From: Escherichia coli | GTDB taxonomy: Bacteria > Pseudomonadota > Gammaproteobacteria > Enterobacterales > Enterobacteriaceae | Reading direction: 5' to 3' (one strand) | NCBI RefSeq assembly: GCF_003334305.1 | Contig: NZ_QOWS01000005.1 | DNA length: 64,000 nt | Shown here: positions 38,014 through 54,638 of the stretch, one piece after another | How the letters are laid out: each line of letters begins with the position of its first letter | Position numbering within the stretch: the stretch's first letter is position 1 | The notes under the pieces: generated by a model | Database searches by the model: none | The model's input: only the letters and a program-made list of their open reading frames with translations | Told to the model about the DNA's origin: nothing | Made by a program: the position numbers and the translations under genes

Positions 38014-38055
38014 ATCTGGCGGCGCAGTTTGTTAAGAAGCTGCGCCGCCTGCAGA

Positions 38056-47718: not shown

Positions 47719-50700
47719 ATGATTCCACAGATTTCCCAGGCACCCGGCGTCGTTCAACTGGTGCTTAATTTTTTGCAAGAGCTGGAGCAACAAGGTTTTA
47801 CCGGCGATACGGCGACAAGTTATGCCGATCGTCTGACAATGTCGACCGACAACAGTATTTACCAACTTCTCCCCGATGCGGTGGTATTTCCGCGTTCAAC
47901 CGCAGATGTGGCGCTGATCGCCCGTCTTGCCGCGCAGGAACGCTATTCATCGCTGATCTTTACCCCCCGCGGCGGCGGCACCGGCACTAACGGTCAGGCG
48001 CTCAACCAGGGGATTATTGTTGATATGTCCCGCCATATGAACCGCATCATCGAAATTAACCCTGAAGAGGGCTGGGTGCGCGTTGAGGCCGGGGTGATAA
48101 AAGATCAACTCAATCAGTACCTGAAACCGTTCGGCTACTTTTTTGCGCCGGAACTTTCGACCAGCAACCGGGCAACGCTCGGTGGGATGATCAATACCGA
48201 TGCATCCGGTCAGGGATCGCTGGTCTATGGCAAAACGTCAGATCACGTACTTGGCGTACGCGCGGTGTTGTTGGGGGGCGATATTCTCGATACGCAACCT
48301 TTACCCGTCGAATTGGCGGAAACGCTGGGTAAATCCAATACCACAATCGGGCGAATTTATAACACGGTTTATCAACGTTGCCGTCAGCAACGCCAGTTAA
48401 TTATCGACAACTTCCCCAAACTTAACCGCTTTCTTACCGGTTACGATCTGCGTCATGTCTTTAACGATGAGATGACCGAGTTCGACCTGACGCGCATTCT
48501 GACGGGTTCAGAAGGGACGCTGGCCTTTATTACCGAAGCGCGGCTGGATATTACGCCCTTGCCTAAAGTGCGCCGTCTGGTGAACGTCAAATATGACTCT
48601 TTTGACTCCGCGCTGCGTAACGCGCCGTTTATGGTTGAGGCGCGGGCGCTTTCGGTAGAGACGGTGGACTCAAAAGTGCTGAATCTGGCGCGGGAAGATA
48701 TTGTCTGGCATTCCGTCAGCGAGTTGATTACCGATGTGCCTGACAAAGAGATGCTCGGGCTGAACATTGTGGAGTTTGCTGGTGATGATGAGGCGCTGAT
48801 TGACGAGCGAGTTAATGCTCTCTGTGTGCGGCTTGATGAGCTGATTGCCAGCCAACAGGCAGGTGTGATTGGCTGGCAGGTGTGCCGCGAGCTGGCGGGT
48901 GTTGAACGTATCTATGCGATGCGTAAAAAAGCCGTTGGTCTGCTTGGCAATGCCAAAGGTGCCGCTAAGCCAATTCCGTTTGCTGAGGATACCTGCGTAC
49001 CGCCGGAACATCTGGCGGATTATATTGCTGAATTTCGCGCGCTGCTCGACAGCCACGGCTTAAGCTACGGTATGTTCGGTCACGTCGACGCAGGTGTTTT
49101 GCACGTCCGTCCAGCGCTGGATATGTGCGATCCTCAACAAGAGATTTTGATGAAGCAAATCTCTGATGACGTGGTGGCGCTGACTGCGAAATACGGTGGT
49201 TTGTTGTGGGGCGAGCACGGCAAAGGTTTTCGCGCTGAATACAGCCCGGCGTTTTTCGGTGAGGAACTTTTTGCAGAACTGCGCAAAGTGAAAGCGGCAT
49301 TTGACCCGCATAACCGACTCAACCCAGGGAAGATTTGCCCGCCAGAAGGTCTCGATGCGCCGATGATGAAAGTGGACGCGGTGAAGCGCGGTACATTCGA
49401 TCGGCAGATCCCCATTGCGGTACGCCAGCAGTGGCGCGGTGCGATGGAGTGTAACGGCAACGGTTTATGCTTCAACTTTGATGCCCGTAGTCCGATGTGT
49501 CCGTCGATGAAGATCACCCAGAGCCGGATTCATTCACCGAAAGGGCGCGCAACGCTGGTGCGTGAATGGCTGCGTTTGTTGGCGGATCGCGGCGTTGATC
49601 CACTCAAACTGGAACAAGAACTGCCTGAATCCGGCGTCAGTTTGCGGACGTTAATTGCCCGCACGCGCAATAGCTGGCATGCGAATAAAGGCGAATATGA
49701 CTTCTCACACGAAGTCAAAGAGGCGATGTCGGGCTGTCTGGCCTGTAAAGCGTGTTCGACCCAGTGCCCCATCAAAATTGATGTGCCGGAGTTTCGCTCT
49801 CGTTTTCTGCAGCTCTATCACACCCGTTATTTACGCCCGCTGCGCGACCACCTCGTCGCTACGGTCGAGAGCTACGCGCCGCTGATGGCACGCGCGCCGA
49901 AAACCTTTAACTTCTTCATTAACCAGCCGCTGGTGCGCAAACTCTCGGAAAAACATATCGGCATGGTTGATTTGCCACTGCTGTCGGTCCCCTCGCTACA
50001 ACAACAAATGGTGGGGCATCGCTCGGCAAACATGACGCTGGAACAGCTTGAAGCTCTCAATGCAGAGCAGAAAGCGCGCACGGTGTTGGTGGTGCAGGAC
50101 CCCTTTACCAGCTATTACGATGCGCAAGTGGTGGCGGATTTTGTCCGTCTGGTTGAAAAATTAGGTTTCCAGCCGGTGTTACTGCCATTTTCGCCAAATG
50201 GCAAAGCCCAGCATATTAAAGGTTTTCTTAATCGTTTTGCGAAGACGGCGAAAAAGACGGCGGATTTCCTCAACCGTATGGCGAAGCTGGGGATGCCAAT
50301 GGTGGGCGTCGATCCGGCGCTGGTACTTTGTTATCGCGATGAATATAAACTGGCGCTGGGCGAGGAACGTGGCGAGTTTAACGTCTTACTGGCGAATGAA
50401 TGGCTGGCAAGCGCACTTGAGTCACAGCCAGTGGCTACAGTCAGCGGTGAATCATGGTATTTCTTTGGTCACTGTACCGAGGTTACCGCCTTGCCGGGCG
50501 CGCCAGCACAATGGGCCGCGATATTTGCCCGTTTTGGCGCGAAACTGGAAAATGTCAGCGTGGGTTGCTGCGGCATGGCAGGGACTTACGGACATGAAGA
50601 GAAAAACCATAAAAATTCGCTCGGGATCTATGAGTTATCCTGGCATCAGGCTATGCAGCGACTGCCGCGTAACCGCTGTCTGGCGACCGGATATTCCTGC

Positions 50701-50775
50701 CGTAGCCAGGTCAAACGGGTTGAAGGCACGGGGGTACGCCATCCTGTGCAGGCTTTACTGGAGATTATTAAATGA
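47719..50775 (+). CDS. ydiJ: FAD-linked oxidoreductase with Fe-S/CCG domains (D-2-hydroxyglutarate dehydrogenase-like)
   Basis: 1018-aa ORF recognised as YdiJ. Confidence 0.9.
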   Translation: MIPQISQAPGVVQLVLNFLQELEQQGFTGDTATSYADRLTMSTDNSIYQLLPDAVVFPRSTADVALIARLAAQERYSSLIFTPRGGGTGTNGQALNQGIIVDMSRHMNRIIEINPEEGWVRVEAGVIKDQLNQYLKPFGYFFAPELSTSNRATLGGMINTDASGQGSLVYGKTSDHVLGVRAVLLGGDILDTQPLPVELAETLGKSNTTIGRIYNTVYQRCRQQRQLIIDNFPKLNRFLTGYDLRHVFNDEMTEFDLTRILTGSEGTLAFITEARLDITPLPKVRRLVNVKYDSFDSALRNAPFMVEARALSVETVDSKVLNLAREDIVWHSVSELITDVPDKEMLGLNIVEFAGDDEALIDERVNALCVRLDELIASQQAGVIGWQVCRELAGVERIYAMRKKAVGLLGNAKGAAKPIPFAEDTCVPPEHLADYIAEFRALLDSHGLSYGMFGHVDAGVLHVRPALDMCDPQQEILMKQISDDVVALTAKYGGLLWGEHGKGFRAEYSPAFFGEELFAELRKVKAAFDPHNRLNPGKICPPEGLDAPMMKVDAVKRGTFDRQIPIAVRQQWRGAMECNGNGLCFNFDARSPMCPSMKITQSRIHSPKGRATLVREWLRLLADRGVDPLKLEQELPESGVSLRTLIARTRNSWHANKGEYDFSHEVKEAMSGCLACKACSTQCPIKIDVPEFRSRFLQLYHTRYLRPLRDHLVATVESYAPLMARAPKTFNFFINQPLVRKLSEKHIGMVDLPLLSVPSLQQQMVGHRSANMTLEQLEALNAEQKARTVLVVQDPFTSYYDAQVVADFVRLVEKLGFQPVLLPFSPNGKAQHIKGFLNRFAKTAKKTADFLNRMAKLGMPMVGVDPALVLCYRDEYKLALGEERGEFNVLLANEWLASALESQPVATVSGESWYFFGHCTEVTALPGAPAQWAAIFARFGAKLENVSVGCCGMAGTYGHEEKNHKNSLGIYELSWHQAMQRLPRNRCLATGYSCRSQVKRVEGTGVRHPVQALLEIIK

Positions 50776-51182
50776 TATGGAAACGAAAAATCACCCTGGA
50801 AGCACTGAATGCTATGGGTGAAGGAAACATGGTGGGGTTGCTGGATATTCGCTTTGAACATATTGGTGATGACACCCTTGAAGCGACAATGCCAGTAGAC
50901 TCGCGGACAAAGCAGCCTTTCGGGTTGCTGCATGGAGGCGCATCCGTGGTGCTGGCCGAAAGTATCGGTTCCGTTGCCGGTTATTTATGTACTGAAGGTG
51001 AGCAAAAAGTGGTTGGCCTGGAAATCAATGCTAACCACGTCCGCTCGGCACGAGAAGGGCGGGTGCGCGGCGTATGCAAACCGTTGCATCTCGGTTCGCG
51101 TCACCAGGTCTGGCAGATTGAAATCTTCGATGAGAAAGGGCGTTTGTGCTGTTCGTCACGATTGACGACCGCCATTTTGTGA
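50772..51182 (+). CDS. menI: 1,4-dihydroxy-2-naphthoyl-CoA hydrolase (hotdog thioesterase)
   Basis: 136-aa ORF recognised as YdiI/MenI; ATGA overlap with the ydiJ stop. Confidence 0.9.
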   Translation: MIWKRKITLEALNAMGEGNMVGLLDIRFEHIGDDTLEATMPVDSRTKQPFGLLHGGASVVLAESIGSVAGYLCTEGEQKVVGLEINANHVRSAREGRVRGVCKPLHLGSRHQVWQIEIFDEKGRLCCSSRLTTAIL

Positions 51183-51281
51183 CGTTGTCACCAGAAAAGT
51201 GTGACGCATATTGCTTTTGGTCATTATCTGCACAGTAAACGGTGGTATACTGTGCAGGTCTTGTCTAAAAGCGAGGATGCT

Positions 51282-51470
51282 ATGTCTACTCAACTTGATC
51301 CCACCCAACTGGCCATTGAATTTTTACGCCGTGACCAGAGCAATCTTTCACCTGCCCAATATCTCAAACGTCTGAAACAACTAGAACTTGAATTTGCTGA
51401 CCTGCTTACTCTCTCTTCTGCTGAATTAAAAGAAGAAATCTACTTTGCCTGGCGTCTGGGCGTGCATTGA
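51282..51470 (+). CDS. ydiH: Uncharacterized small protein YdiH
   Basis: 62-aa product MSTQLDPTQLAIEFLRRDQSNLSPAQYLKRLKQLELEFADLL...; track ORF extended upstream. Confidence 0.75.
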   Translation: MSTQLDPTQLAIEFLRRDQSNLSPAQYLKRLKQLELEFADLLTLSSAELKEEIYFAWRLGVH

Positions 51471-51639
51471 TCCTGACTTAATGCCGCAAGTTCGCCAAAT
51501 CGACCTGGATTAACCTCCGTCCAGGTTCGATGACCTTCTTAATACTGCTTATCTACCGCCTGATATTGTTCAAAAATAATACTAATCGCAGTTTGTGTTA
51601 AAACGGCGGGTTAGCTTTATGAGATTATTCTTATCGCCC

Positions 51640-51745
51640 CTTCAAGAGCTAAGCCACTGAGAGTGCCGGAGATAAGCGCCGGATGGGGTAGAAACCCTTA
51701 AGCCTGTGTTGCACAGACTTAAGGGTTTTCTTATTTCTGAACGCT
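51640..51745 (+). ncRNA. Candidate small RNA with intrinsic terminator in the ydiH-sufA intergenic region (possibly RydB)
   Basis: Strong hairpin aaacccttaag-cctgtgttgcacaga-cttaagggttt followed by tcttatttct on the plus strand, in a 550-bp non-coding gap; I recall an sRNA (rydB) mapping between ydiH and sufA in K-12 but cannot recall its sequence. Confidence 0.35.
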
Positions 51746-51956
51746 GCACTTTTTTACCTATCTCTTAAATAGTCATTTTCAATACAACTTTTTCTTTTTC
51801 ATCACAGCCTTAATGCTCCTTAGATAATAACCATTATCTAACAATGAGATACCTAATTCTTAGCGTGCCTGTTAACCCACACATCAGGGTCTATGCTTAT
51901 TAAAAGCAGGCAAAAAGCATGTTTTACGGTAAAGCCCCTGCGTTTGCTGGGTTGTA

Positions 51957-51977
51957 CTGATAATCATTATCACTAAC
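51957..51977. promoter_or_regulatory. Fur box in the sufA promoter
   Basis: ctGATAATCATTATCactaac closely matches the Fur consensus GATAATGATAATCATTATC, about 45 bp upstream of sufA. Confidence 0.75.
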
Positions 51978-52017
51978 ATGCTGTTATACGCTGAAAGCGA
52001 TGAAGTGAGGTAAATCG

Positions 52018-52386
52018 ATGGACATGCATTCAGGAACCTTTAACCCACAAGATTTCGCCTGGCAAGGCTTAACGCTGACACCCGCAGCGGCGATACACAT
52101 CCGTGAGCTGGTGGCAAAGCAGCCGGGTATGGTCGGCGTGCGCTTAGGCGTGAAGCAAACGGGCTGCGCGGGCTTTGGCTATGTGCTCGACAGTGTTAGC
52201 GAGCCGGACAAAGACGATCTGCTGTTTGAACACGACGGCGCGAAGCTGTTTGTCCCGCTGCAAGCGATGCCGTTTATTGATGGCACGGAAGTCGATTTCG
52301 TTCGTGAAGGACTTAATCAGATATTCAAATTTCACAACCCTAAAGCCCAGAATGAATGTGGCTGTGGCGAAAGCTTTGGGGTATAG
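52018..52386 (+). CDS. sufA: Fe-S cluster A-type carrier protein
   Basis: 122-aa ORF ending in the CGCGESF motif. Confidence 0.95.
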
Positions 52387-52394
52387 GCGGTACT

Positions 52395-53882
52395 ATGTCT
52401 CGTAATACTGAAGCAACTGACGATGTCAAAACCTGGACCGGCGGCCCGCTGAATTATAAAGAAGGATTCTTCACCCAGTTAGCCACCGATGAGCTGGCAA
52501 AGGGGATAAACGAAGAGGTGGTGCGCGCAATTTCGGCGAAGCGTAATGAGCCGGAGTGGATGCTGAAGTTTCGTCTAAACGCCTATCGCGCATGGCTGGA
52601 GATGGAAGAACCGCACTGGTTGAAAGCGCACTACGACAAGCTGAATTATCAGGATTACAGCTACTACTCAGCACCATCGTGCGGTAATTGTGACGACACT
52701 TGCGCGTCTGAACCTGGCGCGGTGCAGCAAACTGGCGCGAACGCCTTTTTAAGTAAAGAGGTGGAGGCGGCGTTTGAGCAGTTGGGCGTTCCCGTGCGGG
52801 AAGGCAAAGAGGTGGCGGTGGATGCCATTTTCGACTCAGTTTCGGTTGCCACTACTTATCGCGAAAAACTGGCGGAGCAGGGAATTATTTTCTGTTCCTT
52901 TGGTGAGGCGATCCACGATCACCCGGAACTGGTGCGTAAATATCTCGGCACCGTGGTGCCGGGGAATGACAACTTCTTTGCCGCGCTTAATGCGGCGGTA
53001 GCCTCTGACGGTACGTTTATTTATGTGCCTAAAGGCGTGCGCTGCCCGATGGAACTTTCCACCTATTTTCGCATTAACGCGGAAAAAACCGGGCAGTTTG
53101 AGCGCACCATTCTGGTGGCCGACGAAGACAGCTACGTCAGCTACATTGAAGGCTGTTCCGCTCCGGTGCGTGACAGCTATCAGTTACACGCGGCAGTGGT
53201 GGAAGTCATCATCCATAAAAACGCCGAGGTGAAATATTCCACGGTACAAAACTGGTTCCCTGGCGATAACAACACCGGCGGTATTCTCAACTTCGTCACC
53301 AAGCGTGCTTTGTGCGAAGGCGAAAACAGCAAAATGTCATGGACGCAATCAGAAACCGGGTCCGCGATTACGTGGAAATATCCCAGCTGCATTTTGCGCG
53401 GCGATAACTCCATTGGTGAGTTTTACTCAGTGGCGCTGACCAGCGGTCATCAGCAAGCGGATACCGGCACCAAGATGATCCACATCGGTAAAAACACCAA
53501 ATCGACCATTATCTCGAAAGGGATCTCTGCCGGACATAGTCAGAACAGTTATCGCGGCTTAGTGAAAATCATGCCGACGGCAACCAATGCGCGCAATTTC
53601 ACTCAGTGCGACTCAATGCTGATTGGCGCTAATTGTGGGGCGCATACCTTCCCGTATGTCGAATGTCGCAATAACAGCGCACAACTGGAGCACGAGGCAA
53701 CGACATCACGTATTGGTGAAGATCAACTGTTTTACTGCCTGCAACGCGGGATCAGCGAAGAAGACGCCATCTCGATGATTGTTAACGGTTTCTGCAAAGA
53801 CGTGTTCTCAGAACTGCCGCTGGAATTTGCCGTTGAAGCACAAAAACTCCTCGCCATCAGTCTTGAACACAGCGTCGGATAA
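52395..53882 (+). CDS. sufB: Fe-S cluster assembly scaffold protein SufB
   Basis: 495-aa product from [26 protein letters not shown]...; track ORF starts 13 codons upstream. Confidence 0.95.
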
Positions 53883-53891
53883 GGAATAAAC

Positions 53892-54638
53892 ATGTTAAGT
53901 ATTAAAGATTTACACGTCAGCGTGGAAGATAAAGCTATCCTGCGTGGATTAAGCCTCGCCGTTCGTCCCGGCGAAGTTCACGCCATTATGGGGCCAAACG
54001 GTTCGGGCAAAAGTACCTTATCGGCAACGCTTGCCGGGCGCGAAGATTATGAAGTGACGGGCGGCACGGTTGAGTTCAAAGGCAAAGATTTGCTTGCACT
54101 GTCGCCGGAAGATCGTGCAGGCGAAGGCATCTTTATGGCCTTCCAGTATCCGGTGGAGATTCCAGGCGTCAGTAACCAGTTTTTCCTGCAAACGGCACTT
54201 AATGCGGTGCGCAGCTATCGCGGCCAGGAAACGCTCGACCGCTTTGATTTTCAGGATTTGATGGAAGAGAAAATCGCTCTCCTGAAGATGCCGGAAGATT
54301 TATTAACCCGTTCGGTAAACGTTGGTTTTTCCGGCGGCGAGAAAAAGCGCAACGATATTTTGCAAATGGCGGTGCTGGAACCGGAGTTATGCATTCTTGA
54401 TGAGTCGGACTCCGGGCTGGATATTGACGCATTAAAAGTGGTCGCCGATGGCGTGAACTCGCTGCGTGATGGCAAGCGCTCATTCATCATTGTTACGCAC
54501 TACCAACGCATTCTCGACTACATCAAGCCTGATTACGTTCATGTGCTATATCAGGGACGAATTGTGAAATCCGGCGATTTCACGTTGGTCAAACAACTGG
54601 AGGAGCAGGGTTATGGCTGGCTTACCGAACAGCAGTAA
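53892..54638 (+). CDS. sufC: Fe-S cluster assembly ATPase SufC
   Basis: 248-aa ABC-type ATPase (GPNGSGKST). Confidence 0.96.
   Translation: MLSIKDLHVSVEDKAILRGLSLAVRPGEVHAIMGPNGSGKSTLSATLAGREDYEVTGGTVEFKGKDLLALSPEDRAGEGIFMAFQYPVEIPGVSNQFFLQTALNAVRSYRGQETLDRFDFQDLMEEKIALLKMPEDLLTRSVNVGFSGGEKKRNDILQMAVLEPELCILDESDSGLDIDALKVVADGVNSLRDGKRSFIIVTHYQRILDYIKPDYVHVLYQGRIVKSGDFTLVKQLEEQGYGWLTEQQ

Follow-up and report, generated by a model that had tools for sequence, protein, structure and literature searches.

The small stable RNAs M1 RNA, 6S RNA, 4.5S RNA and tmRNA mature at the 3' end by removal of the terminator followed by exonucleolytic trimming, and typical Hfq-dependent small RNAs (sRNAs) keep the terminator as the 3' end to which Hfq binds. 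At promoters activated by SoxS, MarA or Rob, class II sites are in the forward orientation near position -41 and are found without a -35 hexamer (PMC12052159; PMC10268841). RydB (Rfam family RF00118; b4430 in Escherichia coli K-12; aliases tpe7 and IS082), which is set against both systems in the following, has been described in a 2024-25 paper as being without known targets or transcription factors. Upon exposure to paraquat, array analysis placed rydB in the SoxR-dependent cluster 3 together with marR and marB, and its neighbour sufA in cluster 5 together with genes of the Fur regulon (Blanchard et al., 2007); as the two genes fall into different clusters, they are regulated independently.

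The subject of this work is the 547-bp non-coding gap between ydiH and sufA, positions 51471-52017 of a 64,000-nt stretch of E. coli DNA hereafter called the window. An earlier reading of the same letters (the original prediction) had recognized in this gap a terminator-like hairpin that follows no protein-coding gene, had suggested that a short independent transcript, tentatively named rydB, ends there, and had seen the suf promoter with a Fur box further downstream. Our analysis makes it quite likely that the gap is composed of two independent modules placed end to end, the rydB gene and then the control region of the sufABCDSE operon, whereby everything of substance, that is rydB, its Rfam family and the suf promoter, is already known.

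The Rfam scan, which covered 49000-54000, returned RF00118 at 51636-51696 on the plus strand over the complete model (positions 1-61 of 61; 81.6 bits, E 7e-19; gathering score 50 bits), and no other significant match within this interval. The curated K-12 gene (b4430, 68 nt, annotated at 1764713-1764780 on the minus strand) maps with identical sequence to 51624-51691 on the plus strand of the window, which is the reverse complement of K-12, and rydB lies between ydiH and sufA on the same strand as both. The family match together with the mapping of b4430, on the plus strand and directly 5' of the hairpin, bears out the tentative name, and rydB was found neither elsewhere nor on the opposite strand; identical sequence, strand and synteny make the copy in the window the same gene as in K-12 without any biological difference. 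Relative to the RNA as delimited by Rfam and by Term-seq (see below), the curated K-12 feature begins 12 nt and ends 5 nt to the 5' side, which suggests that its 5' end (51624) has been placed too far upstream by these 12 nt, and neither this feature nor the Rfam model takes in the conserved terminator hairpin. For annotation it is of modest practical value that the curated coordinates conflict with Rfam and Term-seq and omit the terminator; in E. coli genomes annotated with the Prokaryotic Genome Annotation Pipeline, no feature underlies the gap and rydB is unannotated.

The hairpin of terminator form is real and occupies 51691-51729 on the plus strand, immediately followed by a T-run (UUUUCUUAUUUCU). 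Its arms AAACCCTTAAG and CTTAAGGGTTT pair within a 12-bp lower stem (51691-51702 with 51718-51729), above which a 1x1 C.A mismatch, a 5-bp upper stem (51704-51708 with 51712-51716) and a 3-nt loop follow. With a folding free energy of -22 kcal/mol (z -5.1, matched by none of 200 shuffled sequences), it ranks among roughly the seven most stable local hairpins when the whole 64-kb window is folded in a sliding frame. The T-rich run TTTTCTTATTTCT at 51726-51738 on the plus strand holds 10 T in 13 nt, and the first four U of the corresponding U-tract pair with GAAA at the base of the stem. As had been noted before, no coding sequence ends at the hairpin; ydiH has its stop at 51470, 221 nt to the 5' side.

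Phylogenetic footprinting assigns this hairpin to rydB. The region upstream of sufA was taken from 80 species of about 25 genera, one genome per species, and rydB was detected by nhmmer in 25 of them, which belong to Escherichia, Citrobacter, Salmonella, Leclercia, Silvania and Pseudenterobacter; in this sample it was not found in Enterobacter, Klebsiella, Kluyvera, Kosakonia, Lelliottia, Atlantibacter and others. For 8 of the positive and 9 of the negative loci, the Rfam model gave the same result as nhmmer. Directly 3' of the RydB body, the hairpin structure is conserved in each of the 25 rydB-positive species, and most of the 26 aligned sequences have a T-run after it, which is weaker (TTCGTTG-type) in four with an alternative stem. 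While the 61-nt RydB body is nearly invariant across the 26 sequences, loops as well as stems and across genera, with covariation in the closing helix P1, the hairpin conserves its pairing: 96.2% of the cells of the alignment are paired, 12 of the 17 pairs show changes on both sides, none of 500 shuffles reaches any of five measures and 3' partners slid out of register pair to only 18-61%. In Citrobacter koseri, Citrobacter sp. R56 and NCU1, and Pseudenterobacter the stem sequence is wholly different and nevertheless pairs (GAACGGTCAG.../...CTGACCGTTC). As is common for intrinsic terminators of enterobacterial sRNA genes, rydB thus has a stable and covarying stem-loop with a U-rich tract that ends a short unit.

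The distance between rydB and sufA provides a second line of evidence, as it varies by species from 380 to 2311 nt, with insertions of 0.4-1.9 kb in Salmonella and in the C. braakii group, and the hairpin always stays with rydB. The suf sites described below keep their distance from the sufA start codon in the rydB-positive species, the OxyR-like core at -259 to -261 (24/25) and the Fur box at -60 to -62 (25/25). Because across these insertions the hairpin remains with rydB and the suf sites with sufA, the hairpin is, on comparative grounds, to be taken as the 3' element and putative terminator of rydB and not as part of suf control.

At the other end of the RNA, the alignment of the 26 sequences shows two conserved blocks 5' of the RydB body, 51585-51603 and 51618-51634, separated by a variable spacer of 14 nt. 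The downstream block contains on the plus strand a candidate extended -10 element of rydB (TGaGATTAT, 51620-51628), in which T51620, G51621, A51624 and T51628 are invariant and A51627 is present in 25 of 26 sequences; the invariant TG one base 5' of the hexamer GATTAT, which would occupy -13 to -8, predicts a start at about G51636, where the Rfam model also begins. The upstream block contains a candidate soxbox/marbox-like element (ATCGCAGTTTGTGTTAAAAC, 51585-51604, plus strand), which has two mismatches (C7 to G/A and Y19 to A) to the consensus AYNGCACNNWNNRYYAAAYN as quoted by Blanchard et al. (2007), and which varies little or not at all in its RE1 (GCA) and RE2 (GTTAAA) columns. Counted from the predicted start G51636, the element is in forward orientation and centred at -41.5, and there is no -35 hexamer. 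The same geometry is seen at K-12 micF, where the box ACAGCACTGAATGTCAAAAC is centred at -41.5 and TAGAAT is located at -13 to -8, and the boxes of micF and rydB have the 3' half GT(C/T)AAAAC in common. The micF promoter is a bona fide class II SoxS/MarA/Rob promoter. By its sequence alone, the rydB box with its two mismatches is not significant. A promoter in which this element at -41.5 and the extended -10 together direct initiation around G51636 would be micF-like and fits the published SoxR-dependent induction of rydB, for which the conserved class II soxbox candidate would provide a concrete explanation. Direct activation of rydB by SoxS, MarA or Rob has, in our estimate, a slightly better than even chance of being correct.

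The 3' end of the abundant RNA has been mapped by Term-seq to K-12 position 1764708 on the minus strand (Adams et al., 2021, eLife; PMC7815308), which corresponds to 51696 in the window. The end falls on the second C of GAAACC|C, which lies in the 5' arm of the hairpin five bases from its foot, and is also the last position of the Rfam model. In LB medium at an optical density (OD) of 0.4, an average of 2.17 million reads end there, and 4.14 million in the second condition tab, apparently LB at OD 2.0, compared with 3.5 million for the tRNA aspV, 0.18 million for lpp and 6 thousand for SgrS in the same table (PMC7815308). Other Term-seq supplements that were searched contain no rydB entry. The full Rfam match, the Term-seq 3' end and the invariant body concordantly delimit a mature RydB of 61 nt at 51636-51696 on the plus strand. 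The short independent transcript proposed in the original prediction therefore stands as a unit, as rydB and the hairpin are linked, but the T-run is not where the abundant RNA stops.

As the 3' end of the abundant RNA is located within the 5' arm of the hairpin and not at the T-run, we infer that RydB is processed. RNA polymerase would terminate in the U-tract at approximately 51732-51738 to give a primary transcript of about 100 nt, from which the terminator would be cut off and the RNA trimmed to 51696, 8 nt 3' of the P1 helix, to yield the abundant 61-nt species, the body of which is predicted to fold into three helices closed by P1 (CCCC/GGGG). The route may be that of the small stable RNAs, an endonucleolytic cut or an attack by ribonuclease (RNase) R or PNPase followed by stalling of a 3' exonuclease near the helix, and RNase III might begin it with a cut in the helix of about 18 bp. 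The stable 61-nt RydB would thus probably arise by removal of the terminator. In addition, the terminator would stop transcription of rydB, and any read-through from ydiH, about 10 nt before the OxyR site and could in this way insulate the suf promoter, which is under tight regulation.

Published listings can be reconciled with such a unit. Salmonella rydB has been given as 105 nt (Sittka et al., 2008), a length that is the distance from promoter to U-tract and describes the location of the gene rather than a mapped RNA end, and rydB is credited with a Rho-independent terminator in the RepRanger study. The enrichment of RydB with Hfq is low (4 vs 10 reads; Sittka et al., 2008) and the RNA is classed as Hfq-independent in a published listing, which is consistent with loss of terminator and U-tail. 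Unlike typical Hfq-dependent sRNAs, which retain this structure, abundant RydB thus lacks the terminator and ends inside its 5' arm. It rather appears to resemble the small stable RNAs M1, 6S, 4.5S and tmRNA in its abundance, with Term-seq counts at the level of a tRNA, in a mature end few nucleotides past the closing helix and in a conserved terminator that is absent from the mature RNA, a likeness that we draw from the positions of the ends. To place RydB with the processed, Hfq-independent RNAs matters for overexpression constructs and target searches. Its invariance and tRNA-like abundance would also be compatible with a function that does not involve base pairing, and a proposal that we regard as rather doubtful is that RydB is a SoxS/MarA/Rob-induced, stable-RNA-like molecule, not a conventional base-pairing sRNA, with a protein- or ligand-binding role in the superoxide/redox-cycling response. 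If true, RydB would have its role beside the suf Fe-S assembly operon and yet be separately regulated.

Several observations weigh against this picture of promoter, terminator and processing. Matches to the soxbox consensus with two mismatches number 12 in the window where 18.8 are expected, so that on its own the element is no better than chance. The rydB site is absent from the searchable supplementary tables of an E. coli MarA screen and of a Salmonella chromatin immunoprecipitation sequencing study, a rydB transcription start has no entry in the Cappable-seq supplement, and the annotated K-12 5' end (51624) is located 12 nt upstream of the predicted start G51636. The hairpin was not called by a simple rule-based terminator scan, probably because of the internal mismatch, which the scan does not allow. 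The curated Term-seq lists for three growth conditions contain no 3' end at the U-tract (K-12 positions about 1764666-1764674; PMC7815308), so that the proposed precursor would have to be short-lived or to have been filtered from the lists. Finally, the RydB body alone is no stabler than shuffled sequence (-14.7 kcal/mol, z +0.64), so that its fold does not account for the stop of trimming at 51696, for which a bound protein or tertiary structure would be needed.

The sharpness of the dominant in vivo 3' end within the 5' arm, the absence of a listed end at the U-tract and the length of the stem, 17 pairs in a near-perfect helix of about 18 bp, would also be expected if the hairpin were an RNase III-type processing site in a longer transcript which creates the 51696 end, while transcription ends elsewhere or by Rho. 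We consider this unlikely. Most of the 26 sequences carry a T-run after the hairpin, including, in its weaker form, those in which the stem has been replaced; a terminator should show such a run, and a processing site has no need of it. Moreover, RNase III prefers a helix of about two turns, and the helix is shorter than that. Participation of RNase III is also compatible with termination at the hairpin, as the enzyme could remove the terminator afterwards.

A second alternative is that RydB is a fragment derived from the 3' untranslated region of the ydiH (or menI-ydiH) mRNA with both ends processed, the hairpin being the terminator of the ydiH operon. In Escherichia, the hairpin proximal to ydiH has no T-run, which makes read-through plausible, and ydiH was found in 22 of the 25 species with rydB vs 1 of the 55 without it, a near-equal distribution that could be due to common ancestry of the block or to a functional connection. 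On the other hand, the promoter-like module of micF-like geometry is conserved directly 5' of the RydB body, and the paraquat response of rydB is SoxR-dependent. In addition, ydiH and rydB are about 1.8 kb apart through an insertion in many Citrobacter (loci L007-L010, L012-L014, L016, L017, L022 and L024 of the sample), where ydiH has its own canonical terminator, and rydB occurs without ydiH in Leclercia adecarboxylata and Silvania. An origin from the ydiH mRNA is therefore judged decidedly improbable, and transcription of rydB from its own promoter up to its own terminator remains the preferred explanation.

That the hairpin ends in E. coli only about 10-20 nt before the OxyR-like site could suggest a part in suf regulation, whether through binding of a regulator to the palindrome in the DNA or through an attenuator or leader that couples rydB transcription to sufA. 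Besides the insertions that split rydB from sufA and leave the hairpin with the former and the suf sites with the latter, the suf control module is intact in the 55 species without rydB, a convergent open reading frame (ORF) of 448 aa intervenes between rydB and sufA in Salmonella, and the pairing is conserved and the sequence is not, the opposite of what characterizes a protein-binding palindrome. Collectively, this renders a role in suf regulation highly improbable. That the hairpin is a repetitive extragenic palindromic (REP)-type or other dispersed repeat present by chance, as REP-like palindromes found nearby in Salmonella 3' of ydiH might indicate, is practically negligible, since it occurs in a single copy (median one place per genome in 5,421 E. 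coli genomes) and always right after RydB with compensatory evolution.

The second module of the gap, from approximately 51747 to 52017, represents the control region of sufABCDSE with OxyR-like, IHF-like, IscR-like and Fur sites. Footprinting on 17 aligned sequences, complemented by motif counts over the 80 species, shows conserved blocks at fixed distances from the sufA start codon whether rydB is present or not. The core promoter occupies 51952-51979 on the plus strand, with the -35 hexamer TTGTAC at 51952-51957, the Fur box at 51958-51972 and the -10 hexamer TAACAT at 51974-51979, in agreement with the suf promoter having been recognized in the gap. The Fur box TGATAATCATTATCA is a perfect 7-1-7 palindrome between -35 and -10, and a search with the 19-bp Fur consensus, allowing up to three mismatches, found its only matches in the window at 51953-51977, on both strands, where 0.02 are expected; the Fur box previously seen at 51957-51977 is thereby confirmed with the core 51958-51972. 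The Fur pattern TGAnAATCnTTATCA, with two variable positions, is present in all 17 aligned sequences and in all 25 rydB-positive species, TAACAT is invariant in the 17 sequences, and Fur box and -10 are present in 70-75 of the 80 species. The transcription start site of sufA is presumably near A51986, as judged by the position of the -10 hexamer. With respect to the known sufABCDSE promoter of K-12, there is one single-nucleotide difference in the -35 hexamer, T at 51955 (TTGTAC) vs A in K-12 (TTGAAC); T is also found in E. albertii and in Escherichia sp. MOD1-EC7003.

IscR, OxyR and IHF sites had been expected in the gap without being located, and footprinting placed a candidate site for each, named provisionally by motif resemblance and by published footprint positions. 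As in the known arrangement of the promoter, an IscR type-2-like site lies over the -35 hexamer, and further upstream come the IHF-like and OxyR-like sites at constant distances. The IscR-like site AAAGCCCCTGCGTTTGCTGGGTTGTA is a conserved block at 51931-51956 on the plus strand that appears to match the type-2 consensus. The IHF-like site TAACAATGAGATA (51838-51850, plus strand) is located at -180 from the start codon in 45 of the 80 species and reads as a perfect WATCAANNNNTTR in Citrobacter, with two mismatches in E. coli. The OxyR-like site (51747-51783) has the core CTAT-N7-ATAG-N7-CAAT at 51758-51783, at -260 from the sufA start codon; CTAT-N7-ATAG occurs in all but one (locus L018) of the 25 species with rydB and in 32 of the 55 without it, and the full four-element OxyR consensus was not matched within three mismatches. 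An additional, very strongly conserved block at 51875-51905 (AACCC..CAGGGTCTATGCTTATTAAAAG), with the core GGTCTATGCTTA at -131 from the start codon in 67 of the 80 species, is not accounted for by Fur, IscR, OxyR or IHF. This block, the most strongly conserved of the suf upstream region, contains a TGCTT-N5-AAGCA palindrome and is also found in species without rydB; it might be an NsrR-type site.

A number of other candidates in and around rydB were considered and rejected. Promoter activity for the annotated 5' end at 51624 would require a -10 in 51604-51617, the least conserved part of the upstream region, and would centre the soxbox at -29.5, which fits no class, and the conserved TGTGT block lacks the conserved TCACA partner that a CRP site would need. 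A 13-codon ORF starts at ATG51620 and runs into RydB, but 10 of the 26 sequences lose its frame through an indel of 1 nt at 51635 while the RNA body is invariant, and a 35-aa minus-strand ORF (51642-51749) merely crosses the palindrome. Antiterminator pairing of the RydB 5' end CCCCUUCAAG or of the P1 3' strand GGGG with the terminator arms is lost in the four species with a replaced stem. As a riboswitch or attenuator, the element would face a downstream neighbour that varies and is convergent in Salmonella, and the alternative pairings GGGG/CCC and 5' end/3' arm are unconserved. Two sub-threshold Rfam matches, mir-1278 and asX4, were considered chance matches. Bidirectional termination in E. 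coli was rejected, as the minus-strand tail UUUCUACCCC is not U-rich and nothing converges there. In S. enterica subsp. diarizonae (locus L020), the convergent 448-aa ORF extends over 2228-3574 of the locus and its stop is approximately 15-20 nt from the T-run of rydB; there, the rydB hairpin could act bidirectionally.

With respect to the surroundings of the gap, the gene order is ydiJ, menI, ydiH, gap, sufA and sufB, all on the plus strand, with ydiH (62 aa, MSTQLDP..., mapped from K-12 b1685) at 51282-51470 and sufA at 52018-52386. The gap has 100% identity with strain E2865 and 99.6% with K-12 MG1655, from which it differs at 2 of 547 positions, one within the loop of the hairpin (51710) and one within the -35 hexamer of sufA (51955); it is found in 5,422 of 5,426 complete E. 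coli genomes. The weaker hairpin downstream of ydiH that had been noted at 51513-51537 does exist but is actually located at 51499-51531 on the plus strand; it has no T-run (-16.5 kcal/mol, z -4.6) and is kept in Escherichia, while its place is taken by a canonical terminator in Citrobacter and Leclercia and by a REP-like palindrome in Salmonella. The latter (GCCGGATAAGGCG...GCCGCCATCCGGC) lies just 3' of ydiH in both Salmonella subspecies (loci L020 and L025). At 51212-51273, in the interval from the stop of menI to the start of ydiH, a perfect inverted repeat of 10 bp (CTGCACAGTA-N10-TACTGTGCAG) overlaps a TATACT -10-like hexamer and accounts for the sub-threshold mir-1278 match; it could be a candidate operator or leader hairpin of ydiH. 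Elsewhere in the window, very stable hairpins (-24 to -28 kcal/mol in 42-nt windows) are located at approximately 245-283, 4030-4066, 6313-6352, 16320-16355, 24146-24180 and 38018-38050, and these six are probably gene terminators.

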